NCBI GenBank assembly: GCA_964433345.1
Contig: CAYSQJ010000005.1
Location: 155,585-219,584 of the forward strand
Length of the DNA: 64,000 nucleotides
Source of the DNA: an uncultured Bordetella sp.
Lineage (GTDB): Bacteria > Pseudomonadota > Gammaproteobacteria > Burkholderiales > SG8-41
Direction: 5' to 3'
The position numbers were made by a program, and so were the translations under genes. The notes under the pieces are model-generated. The model was given only the letters and a program-made list of their open reading frames with translations, had not been told where the DNA came from and ran no database searches. This document shows positions 55,721-64,000 of the stretch, in pieces. Every line of letters begins with the position of its first letter. Positions within the stretch are counted from its first letter, which is position 1.

Positions 55721-55805
55721 TCGGCTTGAATCTGCAAGGTTCTTTGCCTGACCCCGTTTCCGTCAATGTTCAAAAGCGATGGATCTGAGCGGTGCCGGAT
55801 TCATT

Positions 55806-55830
55806 GAAAAAGCCCCGTCGCAGGGGCTTT
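55806..55830 (+). terminator. Rho-independent terminator
   Basis: aaaaagcccc-gtcgca-ggggc followed by tttt. Confidence 0.65.
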
Positions 55831-56002
55831 TGTATGGCGGAGAGGGAGTCCGCCATACTAATGTCCAATGACGTCCAACCCGGTCCGATGATTCTGGGTT
55901 TTACAGAGGGAAATTGTTGATCATGGCTTGACATGCCCAAATCAATCCAACACCATCCTTACCTGAAACGTGGGTAGAAACGAGGGTAGGATTGGAGGTG
56001 CA

Positions 56003-57223
56003 ATGGGGCGGGCATTACAGCGGTTGTCGACACGATTCGTGGCCAGCAAGACGGTAGCCGGTTATTACGCCGACGGCGGCGGGCTGTATCTGCAGGTCGG
56101 CTCCTCCCGCAGCAAAAGCTGGATATTCCGTTACACCCTCAACGGCCGCGCCCGCGAGATGGGGCTGGGATCCGTGAGCAATATCGGCCTGGCGGATGCA
56201 CGTAAGTCTGCCAGTGCGTGCCGCGGCCTGTTGCATGAAGGCAGGGATCCCATCCAGGTGCGCGATGCTGAACTGGCAGCTGAGCGGCTTGTACAGGCGC
56301 GCGCCATCACTTTCCGGGAATGTGCGGCAGCCTATATCGATGCTCACCGCGCAGGCTGGAAAAACGCCAAACACGCCAGTCAGTGGACCAATACCCTGGA
56401 GACCTATTGCGGGCCGGTATTTGGCGGTTTGCCGGTTGCGGAAGTGGATACCGGCTACGTGCTGAAGGTGCTGGAACCGATATGGGCGCAAAAGTCCGAG
56501 ACGGCAAGCCGGCTGCGGGCACGCATCGAAAACGTGCTGGATTGGGCGACCGTCAGGAAATACCGCTCCGGTGAAAACCCCGCCAGATGGCGGGGGCATC
56601 TGGATATGCTGCTTCCCAGGCTCGGCAAGAAACAACGGGTCAAGCACCACCCGGCGATGCCTTATGGCGAAATCGGTGCTTTCATGGAGCGGCTGAGGGC
56701 GCAGCCCGGAATCGCCGCCCGTGCGCTGGAGTTTCTTGTCTTGACCGCCGCGCGTACGGCCGAGGTGATTGGTGCAAGGCCGGAAGAATTCGACTTGAGC
56801 AAGGGCGTCTGGATCGTGCCGGCCGAGCGCATGAAATCCGGCCGGCCGCACCGGGTGCCGTTGTCAGGGCGGGCGCTGGCAATTGTCAAAAAACAGAAGG
56901 AGGGGAAATACATCTTCCCGGGGGCCCGCGGAAAAAATCCCTTGAGCAACATGGCCATGCTCAAGCTCCTTGAGCGCATGGGCATTGATGCCACGGTGCA
57001 CGGCTTCCGGTCGACGTTCAGGGACTGGGCCGCGGAGTGCACCCATTATTCGCGGGAGGTGTGCGAAATGGCCCTGGCCCACACGGTCGGGGATCAGACC
57101 GAAGCGGCGTATCGGCGTGGTGATTTGTTTGAAAAGCGCAGACTGCTGATGGGCGACTGGGCTGAATACTGTTCGGCACCGGCAGAGACGAAGATTGTGC
57201 CGCTCAGGCAGGCGTATGCGTAA
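56003..57223 (+). CDS. Tyrosine recombinase/integrase (P4-like, DUF4102 arm-binding N-terminus)
   Basis: ATG after GGAGG; YYADGGGLYLQVGSSRSKSWIFRY, C-terminal HGFRSTFRDW...LAH...Y. Confidence 0.85.
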   Translation: MGRALQRLSTRFVASKTVAGYYADGGGLYLQVGSSRSKSWIFRYTLNGRAREMGLGSVSNIGLADARKSASACRGLLHEGRDPIQVRDAELAAERLVQARAITFRECAAAYIDAHRAGWKNAKHASQWTNTLETYCGPVFGGLPVAEVDTGYVLKVLEPIWAQKSETASRLRARIENVLDWATVRKYRSGENPARWRGHLDMLLPRLGKKQRVKHHPAMPYGEIGAFMERLRAQPGIAARALEFLVLTAARTAEVIGARPEEFDLSKGVWIVPAERMKSGRPHRVPLSGRALAIVKKQKEGKYIFPGARGKNPLSNMAMLKLLERMGIDATVHGFRSTFRDWAAECTHYSREVCEMALAHTVGDQTEAAYRRGDLFEKRRLLMGDWAEYCSAPAETKIVPLRQAYA

Positions 57224-57266
57224 GGATTAGCAGAGTGTCTTTAATCGACCTCGAAGGGAAGTGGGT

Positions 57267-57710
57267 ATGGCCAATCTTGAACGGGCAATCAGCATTGCGG
57301 TTGAGGCGCATCGTGGTTCGGTAGACAAGAGCGGGGTGCCTTACATCCTGCACCCCTTGCGTTTGATGTTGGGGATGTCTACCGACGCAGAGCGCATGAT
57401 TGCGGTGCTCCATGATGTGGTGGAAGACACGCACTGGACGCTGGATGCACTCCGCGCGGAGGGGTTTTCGGAAGATATCCTGTCGGCGCTGGACTGCCTG
57501 ACGCGGCGGGAGGGCGAAACCTACGAGGCGTTTATCGCCCGCGCGTCCGCCAACCCGTTGGCCCGCCGGGTGAAAGTCGCAGATCTTGAGGACAACATGG
57601 ACATCCGCCGGCTTTCTCGTCTTGCGGATAAGGATGTGGAGCGACTGCGGCGCTATTTGGCGGCGTGGCAGTTCATGGTGAGTGAAGCTCACGAGTTGGG
57701 AATGACTTGA
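57267..57710 (+). CDS. Small HD-domain protein, RelA/SpoT-type (p)ppGpp hydrolase-like (small alarmone hydrolase candidate)
   Basis: About 147 aa; AHRGSVDKSGVPYILHPLRL, VLHDVVEDT, VKVADLEDNM. Confidence 0.65.
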   Translation: MANLERAISIAVEAHRGSVDKSGVPYILHPLRLMLGMSTDAERMIAVLHDVVEDTHWTLDALRAEGFSEDILSALDCLTRREGETYEAFIARASANPLARRVKVADLEDNMDIRRLSRLADKDVERLRRYLAAWQFMVSEAHELGMT

Positions 57711-57776
57711 ATCTGGAATTTTGTCTATCAAACTAGGGGCAATTCATCCTTCCACGAGCTTGGCACCTTTGATTTG

Positions 57777-58118
57777 CTATCCACACCCATGCACTACTTG
57801 GTTTAGGTCGGACAACGATCCGCGCGATCTCTTCAAGCTGATTCGCCCGCCAATCACGTAACCGCTACGTCCGTCGGGCAGGCGAACAATGGGCGTGACG
57901 TCATCCTTTTCGACATCGCATCCAATGACGGGGAGTTCTTCACCGGCGCGTAGGACTTTGATAGGCGCATTGGGGATTGTACCCTTTGGTGCACCATAGA
58001 TCTCGGTTTGTTGATCGGCTCTCAAGACAATAACGTCACCACTCAGCACATAGCCAACGAGACTAAGGCCGAGTGAAACCAAAACTGCTATTCCGGCCAG
58101 GACTGCCTTTTGAAACAT
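57777..58118 (-). CDS. Membrane-anchored small protein, candidate immunity protein for toxin CT2
   Basis: ATG 2 nt after the toxin stop; N-terminal TM anchor AVLAGIAVLVSLGLSLVGYVL; AT-richer than the genome. Confidence 0.5.
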   Translation of the reverse strand: MFQKAVLAGIAVLVSLGLSLVGYVLSGDVIVLRADQQTEIYGAPKGTIPNAPIKVLRAGEELPVIGCDVEKDDVTPIVRLPDGRSGYVIGGRISLKRSRGSLSDLNQVVHGCG

Positions 58119-58120
58119 GG

Positions 58121-60211
58121 TCAAGGCACCATCGGTAGCGGTGACAAGGGGCGCGGTCCGGGATAGTAGTTGCCCGGTAACGTAAATGGCGACCGCCCTA
58201 GATCCCTTAAGAAGTCGCGTGGCAACATCGAGTCACCGACATCGATCCCAAATTGCCTCAGGCACTCCTGCCACGGAGTACCACAATTATTACTCGTCGC
58301 GCTGTATTGGGGATCCGACGACAGAAGGCATTTCCGCAACTCCGCCTCTTGCTGCGGTGTAAGCGGAATTCGCACTCCGATCCCATTGCGAACCTGCTGC
58401 TGCCGCTGAATGTAGTCATCAGCGCGAGGATATGTACGATCCCAGCCCCGAGGTCCGAAGGAGAAGTTTTCCCCGTTGATGTTCCCCGAGACATGCCCGA
58501 AGCTACTCTCAAGCTGGCCCAAGTTCCCAGGAACGATTCCGCCCGACCAGGAAAGAGCGCCCCAGAATATGATCTCCGTCATGAGTCCGAGTGGATCTAC
58601 CCTGCTCAATGGATTGCTCCCGACATACGCATAGGTATTAATCCCTCCCGCCAGTCCAATCGGATCAGATTGCACATACCGTCCGGTGAGCGGGTCATAG
58701 TCCCTGAAGTAGTTGTAATGCGTGCCGAGTTCTGTGTCGAAGTACTGCCCCGGCAATCTGAGGTTGCAGGTAAAGTTCCCCGCCCCCGAGGGGTTCTCGT
58801 TCGGCGCATTGTTCCCATAGGGATCATCGTTCGCCCAACTCCACACCGCCTGTCCCGTGTCACTGGTAATGAGCCGCGGCGTGTTCAGGTGATCGGTGTG
58901 CACGAAGTACATCTTCGGCACGGTGGTGAGCGCGATCAGCTGGATCGCATCCGCAATGACGAAGCCGTTGGCCTGGTCGGTGAGGGTGATGGTGCTGCTG
59001 CCGTTGAGGTTAAACGTCCCCAGCAGGTTGAAGGCACCGCCATTGGTCTGCTGGTTGACGGGTACTTGAGTGGTCCCCTGGGCATGGTTCACCGTGTAAG
59101 TCGCATTGCTCGCCCGATTCGGGTTTGCCGTCCACTTCGCATACACCTCGTATTGCCCCGCTGCGACGTTCGGCGTCCAGGTCGCGGTGTTGAACTCCGG
59201 CGCCGAGGCCTCGATCAGCCGGATCGCATCCGCAATCACGAAGCCATTGGCCTGATCCGTCAGACTCACCTTGTGGCCCGATCCGGGCGCCATGCTGTAA
59301 GTGCCGAGCAAGACCCACTGCCCGTTGTTCTGCACCTGATCCACCGTCACCGGGGTGTCACCCCCGGCATGGGTCACCGTGTACTGGGCATTGCTCGCCC
59401 GGTTCGGATGCGCCGTCCAGCGGGCATAGACCTTGTAGCTGCCCGCACTGGGGATCGTCGGCGTCCAGGTGGCCGTATTGGGGGCCGCATTCTCCGGGGT
59501 GACCTTGATCGCATCGGCAATGACGTAGCCGTCACCCTGGTCGACCAGCACCACCGAGTGGCCGCTGCCGGCGTTGAGACTGAAGGTGCCCAGCAACTGC
59601 CAAGTCCCGCCATTGGCCTCCTGGTTCACCGTCACCGCTGTCGCGCCCCCGGCATGGTTCACCGTATAGGTGGCCTGGGTGCTGCGGTTGGGGTGGGCGG
59701 TCCAGCGGGCATAGACCTTGTAGCTGCCGGTGGTGGGGATGGTGGGGGTCCAGGTGAAGCTGTTGGCCCCGGCCCCGGCCGGGTGATGCTGGTAGTTGCT
59801 GCCGTAGTAGCCGCCGACACTGGTGGAAGTGGCCCAGGTGCCGGAGGCCGTGCCCGCGGTGTTGTCCACCACGATGGCAGAGGGTTCCTCGCCATTGGCG
59901 GCGTGGACCTGGTAGTTGCTGCCCAGATACCCGCCCACCGAGGTCGAAGTGGGCCAGGTGCCAGTGACACTGAAGCCCGAGTCGGTGTTGTCCACCACGA
60001 TGGCGCCGGGCGGGCTGCCGTTGGCGGGGTGGGCGAGGTAGTTCGTGCCCTGGTAACCGGGCACATTGGTGGAGGCCGACCAGCTGCCCAGCGTGCTGAA
60101 GCCGGCGTCGGTGTTGTCGATCACCACCGGGGTGGCGGCCTGGGTGGCCACGGCAGCGCAGAGGAGGAATGCAGCGAGTATTCCTGCGGTACTGTGGTTA
60201 TGGGAGGGCAT
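58121..60211 (-). CDS. Secreted lectin-repeat / RHS-core / C-terminal toxin (CT2) protein, downstream copy
   Basis: Signal peptide ...AAFLLCAAVATQA|ATP; repeat modules; core MYFVHTDHLNTPRL...YDPLTGRYVQSDPIGL...SRVDPLGL; unique 153-aa C-terminus; no obvious SD. Confidence 0.8.
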   Translation of the reverse strand: MPSHNHSTAGILAAFLLCAAVATQAATPVVIDNTDAGFSTLGSWSASTNVPGYQGTNYLAHPANGSPPGAIVVDNTDSGFSVTGTWPTSTSVGGYLGSNYQVHAANGEEPSAIVVDNTAGTASGTWATSTSVGGYYGSNYQHHPAGAGANSFTWTPTIPTTGSYKVYARWTAHPNRSTQATYTVNHAGGATAVTVNQEANGGTWQLLGTFSLNAGSGHSVVLVDQGDGYVIADAIKVTPENAAPNTATWTPTIPSAGSYKVYARWTAHPNRASNAQYTVTHAGGDTPVTVDQVQNNGQWVLLGTYSMAPGSGHKVSLTDQANGFVIADAIRLIEASAPEFNTATWTPNVAAGQYEVYAKWTANPNRASNATYTVNHAQGTTQVPVNQQTNGGAFNLLGTFNLNGSSTITLTDQANGFVIADAIQLIALTTVPKMYFVHTDHLNTPRLITSDTGQAVWSWANDDPYGNNAPNENPSGAGNFTCNLRLPGQYFDTELGTHYNYFRDYDPLTGRYVQSDPIGLAGGINTYAYVGSNPLSRVDPLGLMTEIIFWGALSWSGGIVPGNLGQLESSFGHVSGNINGENFSFGPRGWDRTYPRADDYIQRQQQVRNGIGVRIPLTPQQEAELRKCLLSSDPQYSATSNNCGTPWQECLRQFGIDVGDSMLPRDFLRDLGRSPFTLPGNYYPGPRPLSPLPMVP

Positions 60212-60227
60212 CAAGAGATATTGTTTT

Positions 60228-60257
60228 AAGTATTTGTTTTTATTGATTATTTTTATC
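60228..60257 (+). promoter_or_regulatory. AT-rich recurrent element (IHF-site-like), copy 7
   Basis: aagtatttgtttttattgattatttttatc (14/15 core), 17 nt upstream of the minus-strand start at 60211. Confidence 0.55.
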
Positions 60258-60262
60258 GTCCG

Positions 60263-60577
60263 TTATGTTTTTTGCTCCATCATTTTCCGCAGACCGTAAA
60301 AAGCAATCGATAAGAGTGCGATACCAGATATCAACGCAACTAACACGGCTAGCCCCCCCCGCAGCCCTCCCACTGAATGGATCACATGTCCCATTGCAAA
60401 TACGCCAAGTAAAGTAGTGGAAATCGAGATCAAGATCGCGTGGCGCAACCATTGCTGTCCGCGATGTAGGGATCTATTGAAGCGCACCAGCAAATAGCAA
60501 AAAAAACAAGTACAGCCGGTGAGCCAGCCATATCCAATGGACCAGAGCACTGTCTCCCAATAACTAACGTCCACCAT
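60263..60577 (-). CDS. Small polytopic membrane protein (second immunity-like gene after CT1)
   Basis: 169-aa ORF trimmed to MVDVSYWETVLWSIGYGWLTG...; three hydrophobic segments; starts 2 nt after the previous stop; AT-rich. Confidence 0.45.
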   Translation of the reverse strand: MVDVSYWETVLWSIGYGWLTGCTCFFCYLLVRFNRSLHRGQQWLRHAILISISTTLLGVFAMGHVIHSVGGLRGGLAVLVALISGIALLSIAFYGLRKMMEQKT

Positions 60578-60579
60578 AT

Positions 60580-60906
60580 TTATGCTCGGCTGGCACTGCG
60601 AACGACCCTTGGTACGACGTACTTGATACCGACAATGGTTACGGCAAATAGCATCACAAGGGCAAGAAGCGGTGGAAGCAATCCACCATCGGAACTTAAG
60701 CGAAACGCCCTCACAACCGAAAGAGAAACTGCCGCGAACGCGAAGAAGAGAAGACGTATAGTAATTATCCATAGGTGACGGTGCGCGCTTCTACCATTGG
60801 GCGGCGCAGGTAAGAGCGTTAAGTTAATCACGGAATAAGTTACCGCGAGAGCTCCTACCGCAGATCCGAACCCGATTCCAGCTAGCAGGCTGAGTAGTGC
60901 GTCCAT
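60580..60906 (-). CDS. Small polytopic membrane protein, candidate immunity protein for toxin CT1
   Basis: MDALLSLLAGIGFGSAVGALAV...; TAATG stop/start overlap with the toxin gene; three hydrophobic segments. Confidence 0.5.
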   Translation of the reverse strand: MDALLSLLAGIGFGSAVGALAVTYSVINLTLLPAPPNGRSAHRHLWIITIRLLFFAFAAVSLSVVRAFRLSSDGGLLPPLLALVMLFAVTIVGIKYVVPRVVRSASRA

Positions 60907-63071
60907 TACTGGCACCCACAAGACATGTCGGGGTTGTACCCGCCAAGCGTGGTTGGCACGAACAGATTTGCTCCCATTTGGCTCGCGGCACTTGCCCCAA
61001 CTGAGACAGCAGCACCAGCATTGAGTGCATTCTGCATATTCGCGCTGATCGTCGCTGGGCTGGTAAAACCGCTAAATGTACGGTTTTGTCCAATATACTG
61101 GAGCGTGCGCCCAAGTCCTGCCGCGCTGCCCAAACCTCCGGAGATTGCACCGATTCCAGCTTGCACACCTGCTTGACCCCAACACACATTGCCAGTTGTG
61201 GCGTACTGATTCACTACATTACTCGTGCCACCAATCAGGCCTCCGGCCAATCCTGTTCCAAAGACACCCCATGAGGTAGGAACAAACGTTGCAGCGACGC
61301 CAGCACCAGCGCCAACAACCGTCCCCCACGCGATAGCAGAGGCATTCTGCCAAGTCCATCCGCCGCTCGCATTTGCTGCTTGGATCGCACCGGCAGCACC
61401 CCCGACGACACCGCCGATAGTTTGAATGATCCAGAGGCCCTCTGGGTCAACACGACTCAGCGGATTGCTTCCAACATAGGCGTATGTATTGATTCCCCCT
61501 GCGAGCCCAATCGGATCAGATTGCACATACCGTCCGGTGAGCGGATCATAATCCCTGAAGTAGTTGTAGTGTGTGCCGAGTTCAGTGTCGAAGTACTGCC
61601 CCGGCAGTCTGAGGTTGCAGGTAAAGTTCCCCGCCCCCGAGGGGTTCTCGTTCGGCGCATTGTTCCCATAGGGATCATCGTTCGCCCAACTCCACACCGC
61701 CTGTCCCGTGTCACTGGTAATGAGCCGCGGCGTGTTCAGGTGATCGGTGTGCACGAAGTACATCTTCGGCACGGTGGTGAGCGCGATCAGCTGGATCGCA
61801 TCCGCAATGACGAAGCCGTTGGCCTGGTCGGTGAGGGTGATGGTGCTGCTGCCGTTGAGGTTAAACGTCCCCAGCAGGTTGAAGGCACCGCCATTGGTCT
61901 GCTGGTTGACGGGTACTTGAGTGGTCCCCTGGGCATGGTTCACCGTGTAAGTCGCATTGCTCGCCCGATTCGGGTTTGCCGTCCACTTCGCATACACCTC
62001 GTATTGCCCCGCTGCGACGTTCGGCGTCCAGGTCGCGGTGTTGAACTCCGGCGCCGAGGCCTCGATCAGCCGGATCGCATCCGCAATCACGAAGCCATTG
62101 GCCTGATCCGTCAGACTCACCTTGTGGCCCGATCCGGGCGCCATGCTGTAAGTGCCGAGCAAGACCCACTGCCCGTTGTTCTGCACCTGATCCACCGTCA
62201 CCGGGGTGTCACCCCCGGCATGGGTCACCGTGTACTGGGCATTGCTCGCCCGGTTCGGATGCGCCGTCCAGCGGGCATAGACCTTGTAGCTGCCCGCACT
62301 GGGGATCGTCGGCGTCCAGGTGGCCGTATTGGGGGCCGCATTCTCCGGGGTGACCTTGATCGCATCGGCAATGACGTAGCCGTCACCCTGGTCGACCAGC
62401 ACCACCGAGTGGCCGCTGCCGGCGTTGAGACTGAAGGTGCCCAGCAACTGCCAAGTCCCGCCATTGGCCTCCTGGTTCACCGTCACCGCTGTCGCGCCCC
62501 CGGCATGGTTCACCGTATAGGTGGCCTGGGTGCTGCGGTTGGGGTGGGCGGTCCAGCGGGCATAGACCTTGTAGCTGCCGGTGGTGGGGATGGTGGGGGT
62601 CCAGGTGAAGCTGTTGGCCCCGGCCCCGGCCGGGTGATGCTGGTAGTTGCTGCCGTAGTAGCCGCCGACACTGGTGGAAGTGGCCCAGGTGCCGGAGGCC
62701 GTGCCCGCGGTGTTGTCCACCACGATGGCAGAGGGTTCCTCGCCATTGGCGGCGTGGACCTGGTAGTTGCTGCCCAGATACCCGCCCACCGAGGTCGAAG
62801 TGGGCCAGGTGCCAGTGACACTGAAGCCCGAGTCGGTGTTGTCCACCACGATGGCGCCGGGCGGGCTGCCGTTGGCGGGGTGGGCGAGGTAGTTCGAGCC
62901 CTGGTAACCGGGCACATTGGTGGAAGCCGACCAGCTGCCCAGCGTGCTGAAGCCGGCATCCGTGTTGTCGATCACCACCGGGGTGGCGGCTTGGGTGGCC
63001 ACGGCAGAGCCCAGCAGCAGGGCGGCGAGCAGGTGGCGGGCGGTGGTCATGATGTGTTTGTTGTTATTCAT
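60906..63071 (-). CDS. Secreted lectin-repeat / RHS-core / C-terminal toxin (CT1, glycine-zipper-rich) protein, upstream copy
   Basis: AGGGG SD; signal peptide MNNNKHIMTTARHLLAALLLGSAVATQA|ATP; same modules and core as the 58121 gene up to SRVDPEGL, then a 175-aa Gly/Ala-rich C-terminus. Confidence 0.8.
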   Translation of the reverse strand: MNNNKHIMTTARHLLAALLLGSAVATQAATPVVIDNTDAGFSTLGSWSASTNVPGYQGSNYLAHPANGSPPGAIVVDNTDSGFSVTGTWPTSTSVGGYLGSNYQVHAANGEEPSAIVVDNTAGTASGTWATSTSVGGYYGSNYQHHPAGAGANSFTWTPTIPTTGSYKVYARWTAHPNRSTQATYTVNHAGGATAVTVNQEANGGTWQLLGTFSLNAGSGHSVVLVDQGDGYVIADAIKVTPENAAPNTATWTPTIPSAGSYKVYARWTAHPNRASNAQYTVTHAGGDTPVTVDQVQNNGQWVLLGTYSMAPGSGHKVSLTDQANGFVIADAIRLIEASAPEFNTATWTPNVAAGQYEVYAKWTANPNRASNATYTVNHAQGTTQVPVNQQTNGGAFNLLGTFNLNGSSTITLTDQANGFVIADAIQLIALTTVPKMYFVHTDHLNTPRLITSDTGQAVWSWANDDPYGNNAPNENPSGAGNFTCNLRLPGQYFDTELGTHYNYFRDYDPLTGRYVQSDPIGLAGGINTYAYVGSNPLSRVDPEGLWIIQTIGGVVGGAAGAIQAANASGGWTWQNASAIAWGTVVGAGAGVAATFVPTSWGVFGTGLAGGLIGGTSNVVNQYATTGNVCWGQAGVQAGIGAISGGLGSAAGLGRTLQYIGQNRTFSGFTSPATISANMQNALNAGAAVSVGASAASQMGANLFVPTTLGGYNPDMSCGCQ

Positions 63072-63084
63072 GTCCGCGGCCCCT

Positions 63085-64000
63085 TTACTGGATCACCGCC
63101 ACGGGGGCATCCCCGAGGTAGATGTATTCCCGCTGGGGGGTGCCGGAGGCACTCGTCTCCGAGATCAGACGCCCCTGGGCGTCATAGTGGTAAATCGTGT
63201 CGCCCTGGGTGTTGGTCTTGCGGATCCGCTGACCGACACTGTTCACCTGGTAGGTCGTGCTGCCCCCCACGCCAGTGGCCTGCACCAGGCGCCCGCGGCT
63301 GTCGTAAGCGAAGCTGCGTGCCGTGTCGGCCGTGGTGCTGCCATTGGCGTCGTAGCTGTAGCTGCGGTTCGTCGTGCCGCTGATGCTGGCGAGCCGGTTG
63401 CTGCTGCCGCTGTAGGCATAGGTGTCGGTGTTCGCCCCCACGGTCCGGGTCAACCGGTTGCCCACCGCATCGAAGGTGTAGCCCTGGCTCGTGCTGGGGC
63501 CGGTGAAGCCCGTCAGCCGGTCCAGCGTGTCATAGGCATAGGTGTTGGTATTGACCGGGGTCACCGTGTCGGTCAGGCTGGTGATGCGGCTGGCGGGGTC
63601 GTAGCCCACGGCAATCGACTGGGTGGCCAGCGTGTAGCTCGCGATGCGCCCGTCCTGATCAAACCCGCGGCTGTAGGTCTGCCCGTTGCCGAAGGTGTGG
63701 CCCGAACTGGGCCCGAAGGGCCGGTAGGCGACGCTGGAGACGACCGTCTGGGTCTCCGAGTCCTTGGTGGTGGCCACCGCCTGGATGCGGCCCAGCGCAT
63801 CAAGGGTGTAGGTGACCTGCCGCCCGGAGGGGTAGGTCATCCCGGTCATGCGGCCTGCGCTGTCATAGGCGTAGGCGGTGACATAGGGCACGCCGTTGAT
63901 GGTGCGGGTCTCCGACAGCAGTCGGCCGTGCACGTCATAGGCATAGTCGGTGAGGCTGTTGGGCTCGGTGATCTGCGTGAGCCGTCCCTTGCCGTTCGTG
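63085..64000 (-). CDS. YD-repeat (Rhs shell) protein, C-terminal part; N-terminus lies beyond the window
   Basis: Repeated YxYDxxGR(L/M) units (YAYDSAGRMTGMTY, YTLDALGRIQAV, YAYDTLDRLTGF, YHYDAQGRLISE). The frame stays open to 64000. It ends ...REYIYLGDAPVAVIQ with TAA at 63085-63087. Confidence 0.85.
   Translation of the reverse strand, partial: TNGKGRLTQITEPNSLTDYAYDVHGRLLSETRTINGVPYVTAYAYDSAGRMTGMTYPSGRQVTYTLDALGRIQAVATTKDSETQTVVSSVAYRPFGPSSGHTFGNGQTYSRGFDQDGRIASYTLATQSIAVGYDPASRITSLTDTVTPVNTNTYAYDTLDRLTGFTGPSTSQGYTFDAVGNRLTRTVGANTDTYAYSGSSNRLASISGTTNRSYSYDANGSTTADTARSFAYDSRGRLVQATGVGGSTTYQVNSVGQRIRKTNTQGDTIYHYDAQGRLISETSASGTPQREYIYLGDAPVAVIQ

Follow-up and report, generated by a model that had tools for sequence, protein, structure and literature searches.

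An Rhs toxin tip of putative glycine-zipper type and its coupled pair of candidate membrane immunity genes in an uncultured Bordetella genome

In order to place a toxin cassette of an uncultured Bordetella sp. among related systems, we compared it with the closest ones described. The cassette lies in a stretch of 64,000 nucleotides (nt), hereafter the window (contig C5:155585-219584), and comprises CT1, the variable C-terminal tip of an Rhs carrier protein, and two small downstream genes, Imm1 and Imm2. In Staphylococcus aureus ST398, EsxX is a glycine-zipper, non-enzymatic and depolarising toxin whose extracellular action is blocked only when ExiC and ExiD are both present; these two also occur as orphan pairs in toxin-less genomes and are reported to have homologues only in Staphylococcaceae (PMC12744356). 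Tse5 (RhsP1, PA2684) of Pseudomonas aeruginosa is an Rhs-encapsulated pore former, and its immunity protein Tsi5 has two transmembrane (TM) segments (PMC9637101, PMC10684867). The ionophores of contact-dependent growth inhibition (CDI; CdiA-CT EC93 family) have little in common apart from a glycine zipper; they are predicted to form membrane bundles of five helices, and each has a fast-diverging, toxin-specific, small hydrophobic CdiI protein (PMC11630599). Finally, Tox-WTIP is a pore-forming domain of Rhs and Photorhabdus virulence cassette (PVC) proteins, having two helices and the signatures RxxR and Wx[ST]IP (Zhang et al. 2012, PMC3482391).

The CT1 cassette is, by position, an Rhs polymorphic toxin tip with its immunity genes; the tip is presumably toxic and the genes downstream of it presumably protective. 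Judged by sequence and conservation, this toxin-immunity cassette is genuine, intact, rare and familiar in kind, and its immunity genes are conserved as a pair rather than being a cognate gene with a leftover. We consider it somewhat more probable than the contrary that CT1 is a glycine-zipper Rhs membrane toxin and that Imm1 and Imm2 act jointly as its immunity. By analogy, EsxX with ExiC and ExiD is the nearest counterpart of the immunity arrangement, and Tse5 with Tsi5 that of the toxin's carrier. Among polymorphic toxins, membrane-depolarising tips have been catalogued least, and databases miss them because of their fast divergence and their lack of a catalytic signature. The locus is a compact test case of the way in which a glycine-zipper toxin is neutralised by small membrane proteins in the bilayer and, as a second question, of why some such toxins would need two immunity proteins while close relatives have one.

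The carrier and the CT1 family

All positions are those of the window, and every gene of the cassette is on the minus strand. The carrier gene (60906-63071, 721 amino acids (aa), from open reading frame (ORF) and translation) encodes, in this order, a Sec-type signal peptide, about five Golvesin_C repeats (Pfam match, 4e-106), a C-terminal piece of the Rhs core, and CT1. Residues 466-546 match Rhs_assc_core (NCBIfam TIGR03696, 3e-22), and the last position of that model is the DPEGL motif (61434-61448, minus strand, read in translation), the end of the Rhs-associated core and its border with the variable tip. The C-terminus reads ...SRVDPEGL followed by the 175 aa WIIQTIGG...MSCGCQ. Since the alignments of this piece to solved Rhs and Tc proteins stop at DPEGL, e.g. 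with the Tse5 shell chain 8cp6_B, the tip boundary drawn in the initial annotation is the canonical one, and the coordinates and counts of its 175-aa tip held in translation. DPEGL is the presumed autoproteolysis site, at which the tip would be cleaved off. A tandem copy of the carrier at 58121-60214 is near-identical up to DPLGL and then continues with another tip and its own 115-aa ORF; different Rhs carriers also bear relatives of CT1, which occur in orphan arrays too.

The comparison to Tse5 is close in the carrier. Tse5 is also an Rhs tip behind a DPxGL-type boundary, its tip is non-enzymatic, membrane-inserting and depolarising with a small membrane immunity protein, and the Rhs core of the window protein and the Tse5 shell chain can be aligned as far as that chain's last residue. 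Delivery and immunity differ. The N-terminus of Tse5 is PAAR-like, and the H1 type VI secretion system (H1-T6SS) fires this protein, whereas the window carrier has a Sec signal peptide and neither TssC nor Hcp was found in its genome (99.76% complete). Tsi5 is a single protein of two TM segments, whereas Imm1 and Imm2 are two proteins of three each. For CT1 itself, searches of the PDB by sequence and profile returned no similar chain; the matching Tse5 chain is the 1121-aa shell piece, so that the Tse5 tip is possibly not among the chains.

CT1 (60909-61433, minus strand) is 175 aa long with 21% Gly, 45% Gly/Ala/Ser, only 3 charged residues (1.7%) and the C-terminal residues CGCQ. The 12 aligned members of its family have a similar composition (40-52% Gly/Ala/Ser, 1.1-6.8% charged residues, one His in total). 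A HMMER search of 1.84 billion representative proteins returned 23 relatives (clusters) at E<=0.001, and in 15 of them the N-terminal sequence read was long enough to look ahead of the tip, where all 15 had the Rhs core. Further loci came from scans of genomes and metagenomes, in Methylomonas and in Bordetella-like, Steroidobacteraceae, Rhodocyclaceae and Gemmatimonadota metagenome-assembled genomes (MAGs). Among 301 genomes of the order, the CT1 profile matched the window's own genome alone. The ratio of nonsynonymous to synonymous substitution rates (dN/dS) for CT1 was 0.05-0.12.

Two alignments of the family, A1 and A5, were collinear across the entire tip. The motifs common to the family are IGGvAGAIQAAN-GGGW, GxxxGxxxG (twice), QxGxQ...GxxSG and NLPVPTxLGGF. 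In both alignments G12, G16 and G20 together with G46 and G50 are invariant and G42 is nearly so, with a spacing of four throughout; G100-x3-G104 and G107-x3-G111 form a further motif pair that is invariant or nearly so, depending on the alignment. Invariant columns of A1 and A5 are confined to Gly, Ala, Ile, Gln and Asn. Inside the tip there is no invariant Asp, Glu, His, Lys, Arg, Ser or Cys, one Ser being nearly invariant in one of the two alignments and one motif Asp nearly invariant. The description of the tip in the initial annotation as dominated by GxxxG/A repeats is borne out by these glycines at the level of the family, and its statement that obvious catalytic residues are lacking agrees with conserved positions that include no typical catalytic residue. 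For this reason, and since no enzymatic family matched, an enzymatic toxin was rejected as a candidate. Absence of an enzymatic match, nearly absent charge and an all-helical prediction give indirect support to the membrane-active toxin proposed at the outset, and a non-enzymatic, membrane-inserting toxin is the best reading of CT1 from its sequence; by analogy it may depolarise the membrane.

The AlphaFold model from the 12-sequence alignment, which is of low confidence, has five long helices at residues 5-27, 33-53, 58-85, 90-122 and 131-162. Membrane-transfer energies were estimated as single-residue sums per 19 residues, with values of a Hessa-type scale. The sums were +2.8 to +7.2 for the CT1 helices and -2.0 to +2.2 for the Imm helices. 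From these energies and the charge count, CT1 is uncharged yet weakly hydrophobic, which is what a domain that crosses the Sec channel unanchored and then inserts by self-association would look like.

The CT1 family is rare and uncharacterised and has no model in Pfam, NCBIfam or PHROGs. CT1 had no match in these three databases or in the PDB, by sequence or profile, and none of the 12 aligned members matched Pfam. A tblastn search of 72,556 plasmids returned no match for CT1, Imm1 or Imm2. Sequence or fold homology of CT1 to the characterised glycine-zipper depolarising toxins, a class with Tse5-CT, EsxX-CT, TspA and the CDI ionophores, was not found with Pfam, NCBIfam, PHROG, PDB and Foldseek searches. 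The CDI ionophores resemble CT1 in the glycine zipper and in the five helices, which for CT1 are modelled at low confidence; no sequence relationship between them was detected via Pfam or PDB searches. These ionophores reside on CdiA behind a VENN boundary and have a separate, receptor-using entry domain, of which none is visible in CT1, and CdiI is a two-helix hairpin of 72-100 aa, one per toxin, compared to the three segments in each of Imm1 (108 aa) and Imm2 (104 aa). Tox-WTIP is likewise a non-catalytic, membrane-spanning helical toxin domain on proteobacterial Rhs proteins; CT1 was rejected as a member because neither signature occurs in it and because it has five predicted helices and only two Arg. 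CT1 would thus work like Tse5-CT, EsxX and the CDI ionophores by analogy, but it is a detectable member of no named family.

Roughly half of the CT1 family ends in CxC a few residues past LGGF (CGCQ, CGCNF, CTCR, CECQ, CRCNF). In CT1 this C-terminus lies at 60909-60920. Its presence does not track the cysteines of the downstream immunity proteins, and it is possibly a periplasmic disulfide or a metal site.

Imm1 and Imm2 as a coupled pair

The start codon of Imm1 (60580-60906, minus strand, 108 aa) shares a base with the toxin stop in a TAATG overlap (GGGTGCCAGTAATGGAC), and the ATG of Imm2 (60263-60577, minus strand, 104 aa) lies 2 nt past the Imm1 TAA. Hydropathy gave three clear membrane segments in Imm1 and three in Imm2, where the first is weaker. 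Overlap, spacing, gene lengths and the three hydrophobic helices per protein are hence as first annotated. Each protein has an acidic N-terminus, a basic first loop and a basic tail, from which an N-out/C-in topology with three TM segments is predicted for both. AlphaFold placed three helices in Imm2 (4-35, 41-70 and 75-103), again at low confidence. The first Imm2 helix, ETvLWSIGYGWLTGCTCF, is nearly invariant among close relatives. Neither protein had a match in Pfam, NCBIfam or PHROGs, and PDB searches likewise returned nothing of use for them. The dN/dS values (Imm1 0.19-0.40, Imm2 0.23-0.74) indicate that both genes are under purifying selection. A scan of 57.5-63.4 kb returned no promoter-like site; the one terminator-like hairpin in it falls within the Imm2 coding frame and was taken as chance. 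Rfam had no match over 57-64 kb.

Homologues of Imm1 and of Imm2 are a handful each among 5.8 billion proteins. A search of that set with the Imm2 profile added one fragment, so that the family is too small for co-variation analysis. Co-occurrence was judged on contigs long enough to show the neighbouring genes. There, Imm1 homologues (70-79% identity) always stand beside an Imm2 homologue, and Imm2 homologues (61-89%) always follow Imm1. The pair is present and tightly coupled in 4 of 4 independent close loci, namely the window, L002, L004/L010 and L003, with 1-nt or 4-nt start/stop overlaps in the relatives in place of the 2-nt gap of the window. In L002 an orphan Rhs fragment carries CT1 (87% identity), with Imm1 and Imm2 homologues behind it, and L004 and L010 are identical sequences from two metagenomes. 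In L003, a Burkholderiales MAG, the pair follows an ATP-binding cassette (ABC) transporter gene; there is no toxin, and about 20 nt of a toxin 3' end are left. DNA homology of the window to the close loci runs from the end of the Rhs core through CT1, Imm1 and Imm2 and ends at 60279-60291, 15-30 nt short of the Imm2 stop. Because this homology spans all three genes and stops at the end of Imm2, CT1-Imm1-Imm2 is one mobile unit.

In the 301 genomes of the order, one other genome (G122) was matched by both Imm1 and Imm2. Its locus (L018) has a 110-aa Imm1 homologue at 29% identity with an Imm2 homologue at 28% identity (E = 1e-11) directly behind it. An old-yellow-enzyme-type reductase and a second housekeeping gene flank the pair, and no toxin is present there; the CT1 profile found none in the G122 genome either. 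Matches of the Imm2 profile in three more genomes (G219, G272 and G039) fall within frames of 322-442 aa at E = 1e-4 to 1e-3 and were treated as chance. The existence of toxin-less pairs in other Burkholderiales genomes suggests that encounters with the toxin in nature are frequent enough for stand-alone protection to be selected.

The initial annotation had proposed that one of the small genes may be an orphan left from an earlier cassette. This idea is not supported, because both genes were retained together over deep divergence: the pair is coupled in every close locus, occurs without a toxin, and has dN/dS below 1. The survey of co-occurrence proposed there gave both small genes together with CT1 in close loci and a single gene in distant relatives. 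Two immunity genes behind one toxin had also been called unusual, which is fair, and we found no report of two-protein membrane immunity for an Rhs toxin in the open-access literature; yet there is a published precedent in ExiC and ExiD for EsxX (PMC12744356). Like EsxX, CT1 is a glycine-zipper and probably non-enzymatic tip on a polymorphic toxin, with a membrane activity that is probable in the case of CT1, and in both systems two polytopic membrane proteins are co-inherited with the toxin and also occur in pairs without it (here L003 and L018). The likeness of Imm1 and Imm2 to ExiC and ExiD is one of arrangement, and a need for both proteins is presumed here. Further differences are that EsxX is a Gram-positive toxin on an LXG carrier, delivered by type VII secretion (T7SS), whereas CT1 is on Rhs; that EsxX also requires the soluble cytoplasmic pair ExiAB, of which the CT1 locus has no counterpart genes; and that ExiC and ExiD flank other genes, whereas Imm1 and Imm2 are translationally coupled neighbours.

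Small ORFs of 94-131 aa with several TM segments directly follow the pair in L002 (3074-3469) and L003 (2393-3080, minus strand). They could be more orphan immunity genes, forming small immunity islands.

Proposed mechanism and its alternatives

In the mechanism that we propose, Sec would export the carrier and so bring CT1 to the periplasmic side of membranes, the five uncharged and weakly hydrophobic helices passing the Sec channel without being stopped. After release at DPEGL, the conserved GxxxGxxxG faces may let the helices pack into a susceptible cell's inner membrane, where an oligomer of CT1 would give an ion-conducting path lined by the conserved Gln and Asn residues and dissipate the membrane potential. 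Imm1 and Imm2 would be inner-membrane proteins of three TM segments whose synthesis is tied to that of the toxin by translational coupling, and they would provide joint immunity, most likely as a hetero-oligomer that binds CT1 or excludes it within the membrane; that both are needed, and that they interact, is something we infer. Since shell and carrier both have signal peptides and TssC and Hcp are missing from the genome, the toxin reaches the inner membrane of the producer itself from outside.

A more specific form of this proposal is that Imm1 and Imm2 are an obligate hetero-oligomeric inner-membrane complex against an Rhs-delivered ionophore, neither protecting alone, and that the pair also circulates by itself, as a defence acquired by bacteria without the toxin. 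We hold this version tentatively, with the doubts slightly outweighing the support. If true, it would be a Gram-negative, Rhs-linked counterpart of ExiC/ExiD, and the subclade of the window would show immunity to a membrane toxin passing from one component to two.

Several results weigh against the mechanism, and they concern the toxin, its delivery and the immunity proteins. In the single CT1 sequence, 11 G-x3-G spacings were observed compared to 7.1 expected from composition (p ~0.06); this enrichment is marginal, so the glycine-zipper claim rests on conservation in the family. The confidence of the CT1 model is low (predicted local distance difference test, pLDDT, 59; predicted template modelling score, pTM, 0.51), as is that of the Imm2 model (pLDDT 65), and a Foldseek search of the PDB with the CT1 model gave a best E of 1.2, with membrane transporters at chance level. 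There is no T6SS that could bring a Sec-exported Rhs toxin to the inner membrane of another cell. Imm1 and Imm2 have no homology to each other by BLASTP or profile comparison. In addition, the distant CT1 relatives (35-45% identity) have a single protein of three TM segments and 102-115 aa in 6 of the 6 loci readable downstream (L005, L006, L009, L011, L012 and L014), which implies that one membrane protein can suffice; L013 has a broken toxin and a similar gene farther off. These single proteins are alike to Imm1 and Imm2 in size and predicted topology, and neither Imm protein has significant sequence similarity to them. As the distant relatives carry one gene, the two-gene state is a feature of the window's subclade.

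The single-gene loci lead to the first alternative, in which Imm1 alone is the cognate immunity protein and Imm2 is an accessory or a passenger (the immunity protein of another toxin frequently encountered alongside CT1, or a stabiliser) linked to it by movement as a block. Imm1 occupies the position of the single immunity gene of the six distant loci, and its profile aligns with the single proteins end to end over 86 columns at a non-significant E of 0.034, which that of Imm2 does not; this hints that Imm1 may be their positional, perhaps ancestral, equivalent. Imm1 is also the better conserved of the two, with identities to the window of 72-80% compared to 61-65% for Imm2 and dN/dS values that are mostly lower. 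On the other hand, the pair persists undivided at identities as low as 28% and in two loci that lack a toxin, its start/stop coupling is conserved, the homology of the cassette ends right after Imm2, and no Imm2 homologue was seen without an adjacent Imm1 homologue on contigs that show the neighbours. We consider this alternative unlikely, although it deserves serious weight.

The second alternative retains a membrane-active CT1 that is not a self-sufficient pore: the toxin would bind a specific inner-membrane protein of the target and jam or open it, and the Imm proteins would shield this receptor, in the manner of the bacteriocins dependent on the mannose phosphotransferase system (man-PTS) and of the receptor-dependent CDI ionophores. 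The CDI ionophores do require membrane-protein receptors (PMC11630599). By our estimate of transfer energies the CT1 helices are too weakly hydrophobic for unaided insertion, and the best non-significant Foldseek neighbours were membrane transporters, including man-PTS/bacteriocin complexes. However, with E > 1 those matches do not exceed chance, the whole 175 aa form one conserved helical unit in which no separate entry domain can be discerned, and Tse5-CT, likewise an Rhs tip, inserts spontaneously into pure lipid (PMC9637101). A receptor-dependent CT1 thus seems to us rather improbable.

A third alternative takes the small proteins as holin-like factors that release a periplasmic Rhs complex and not as immunity proteins. 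Class I holins are small, with three TM segments in N-out/C-in topology and basic C-terminal tails, a description that proteins of about 105 aa such as Imm1 and Imm2 fit, and a genome without T6SS needs some release route. We rejected this role as very improbable: no PHROG, holins included, matched either protein, the locus has no endolysin or spanin gene, the alternative tips of related arrays each bring their own different small membrane gene, which follows an immunity logic, and the pair is found in housekeeping surroundings without a toxin or Rhs gene. Least credible is a decaying, unexpressed remnant whose small ORFs are not genes, for which the absence of promoter-like sites in 57.5-63.4 kb would speak, but none of the three reading frames is interrupted, the toxin gene is full-length and includes a signal peptide, every dN/dS value for CT1 and Imm1 and most of those for Imm2 are well below 1, and intact homologues exist in independent metagenomes and genomes.

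Genomic setting and base composition

The host genome is 3.49 Mb long with 64% GC and a completeness of 99.76%, and its only two Rhs-associated cores are both at this locus. Upstream of the cassette, on the same strand, a gene encodes a 1257-aa Rhs shell protein with a signal peptide of its own, which stops shortly before the usual core sequence. Downstream are the second copy of the carrier, the 115-aa ORF, an HD-domain gene and an integrase. One genome of the same genus is collinear to the window up to about 55.7 kb, with 75-89% identity in the flanking tex region; the tex gene is 61-77% identical to homologues mainly from Burkholderiales. The region from the integrase to the Rhs genes (window 55730-64000, continuing to C5 ~222442) is absent from three genomes of the same genus and is hence a strain-specific island.

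The initial annotation had described the segment as AT-richer than the genome. Indeed, the GC fraction declines through the cassette, with 0.570 in CT1, 0.523 in Imm1 and 0.483 in Imm2 after 0.636 in the remainder of the toxin gene; the window as a whole has 0.631. Its count of 20 G+C in the 60 nt of 60241-60300 is exact, but part of it is due to a genome-wide AT-rich repeat. This repeat, 27-28 nt long at 60227-60254, lies outside the cassette in the AT-rich spacer of 48 nt (60215-60262) that separates the Imm2 stop from the beginning of the second toxin gene and delimits the cassette on this side. Read on the minus strand, the repeat is AAAAATAATCAATAAAAACAAATACTTA, with the consensus AAAAATATCAATAAAA[A/T]CAAATACTTA. 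At least 129 copies with up to 4 mismatches are in the genome, and many identical 27-28-mers are in three genomes of the same genus. Most copies look intergenic, and the repeat is not a hairpin. In a crude test, copies showed no preference for positions just upstream of long ORFs (65% compared to 62% at random). A promoter or UP element and a site for a nucleoid protein are possibilities for its role.

The delivery setting is unusual, with a Sec-exported carrier split from the Rhs shell in a genome without T6SS. A similar split was seen in L006 (725-6504), an uncultured Bordetella-like MAG, where a signal-peptide Rhs shell protein ends just past the shell and the product of an overlapping second gene consists of a signal peptide, modules of Ig-like and Golvesin_C-like type, the end of the Rhs core and a tip of the CT1 family. 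In L010 (2-1036) a different beta-rich module stands ahead of the Rhs core end and CT1. With these two loci, a separately exported protein of plug plus toxin is not unique to this genome.

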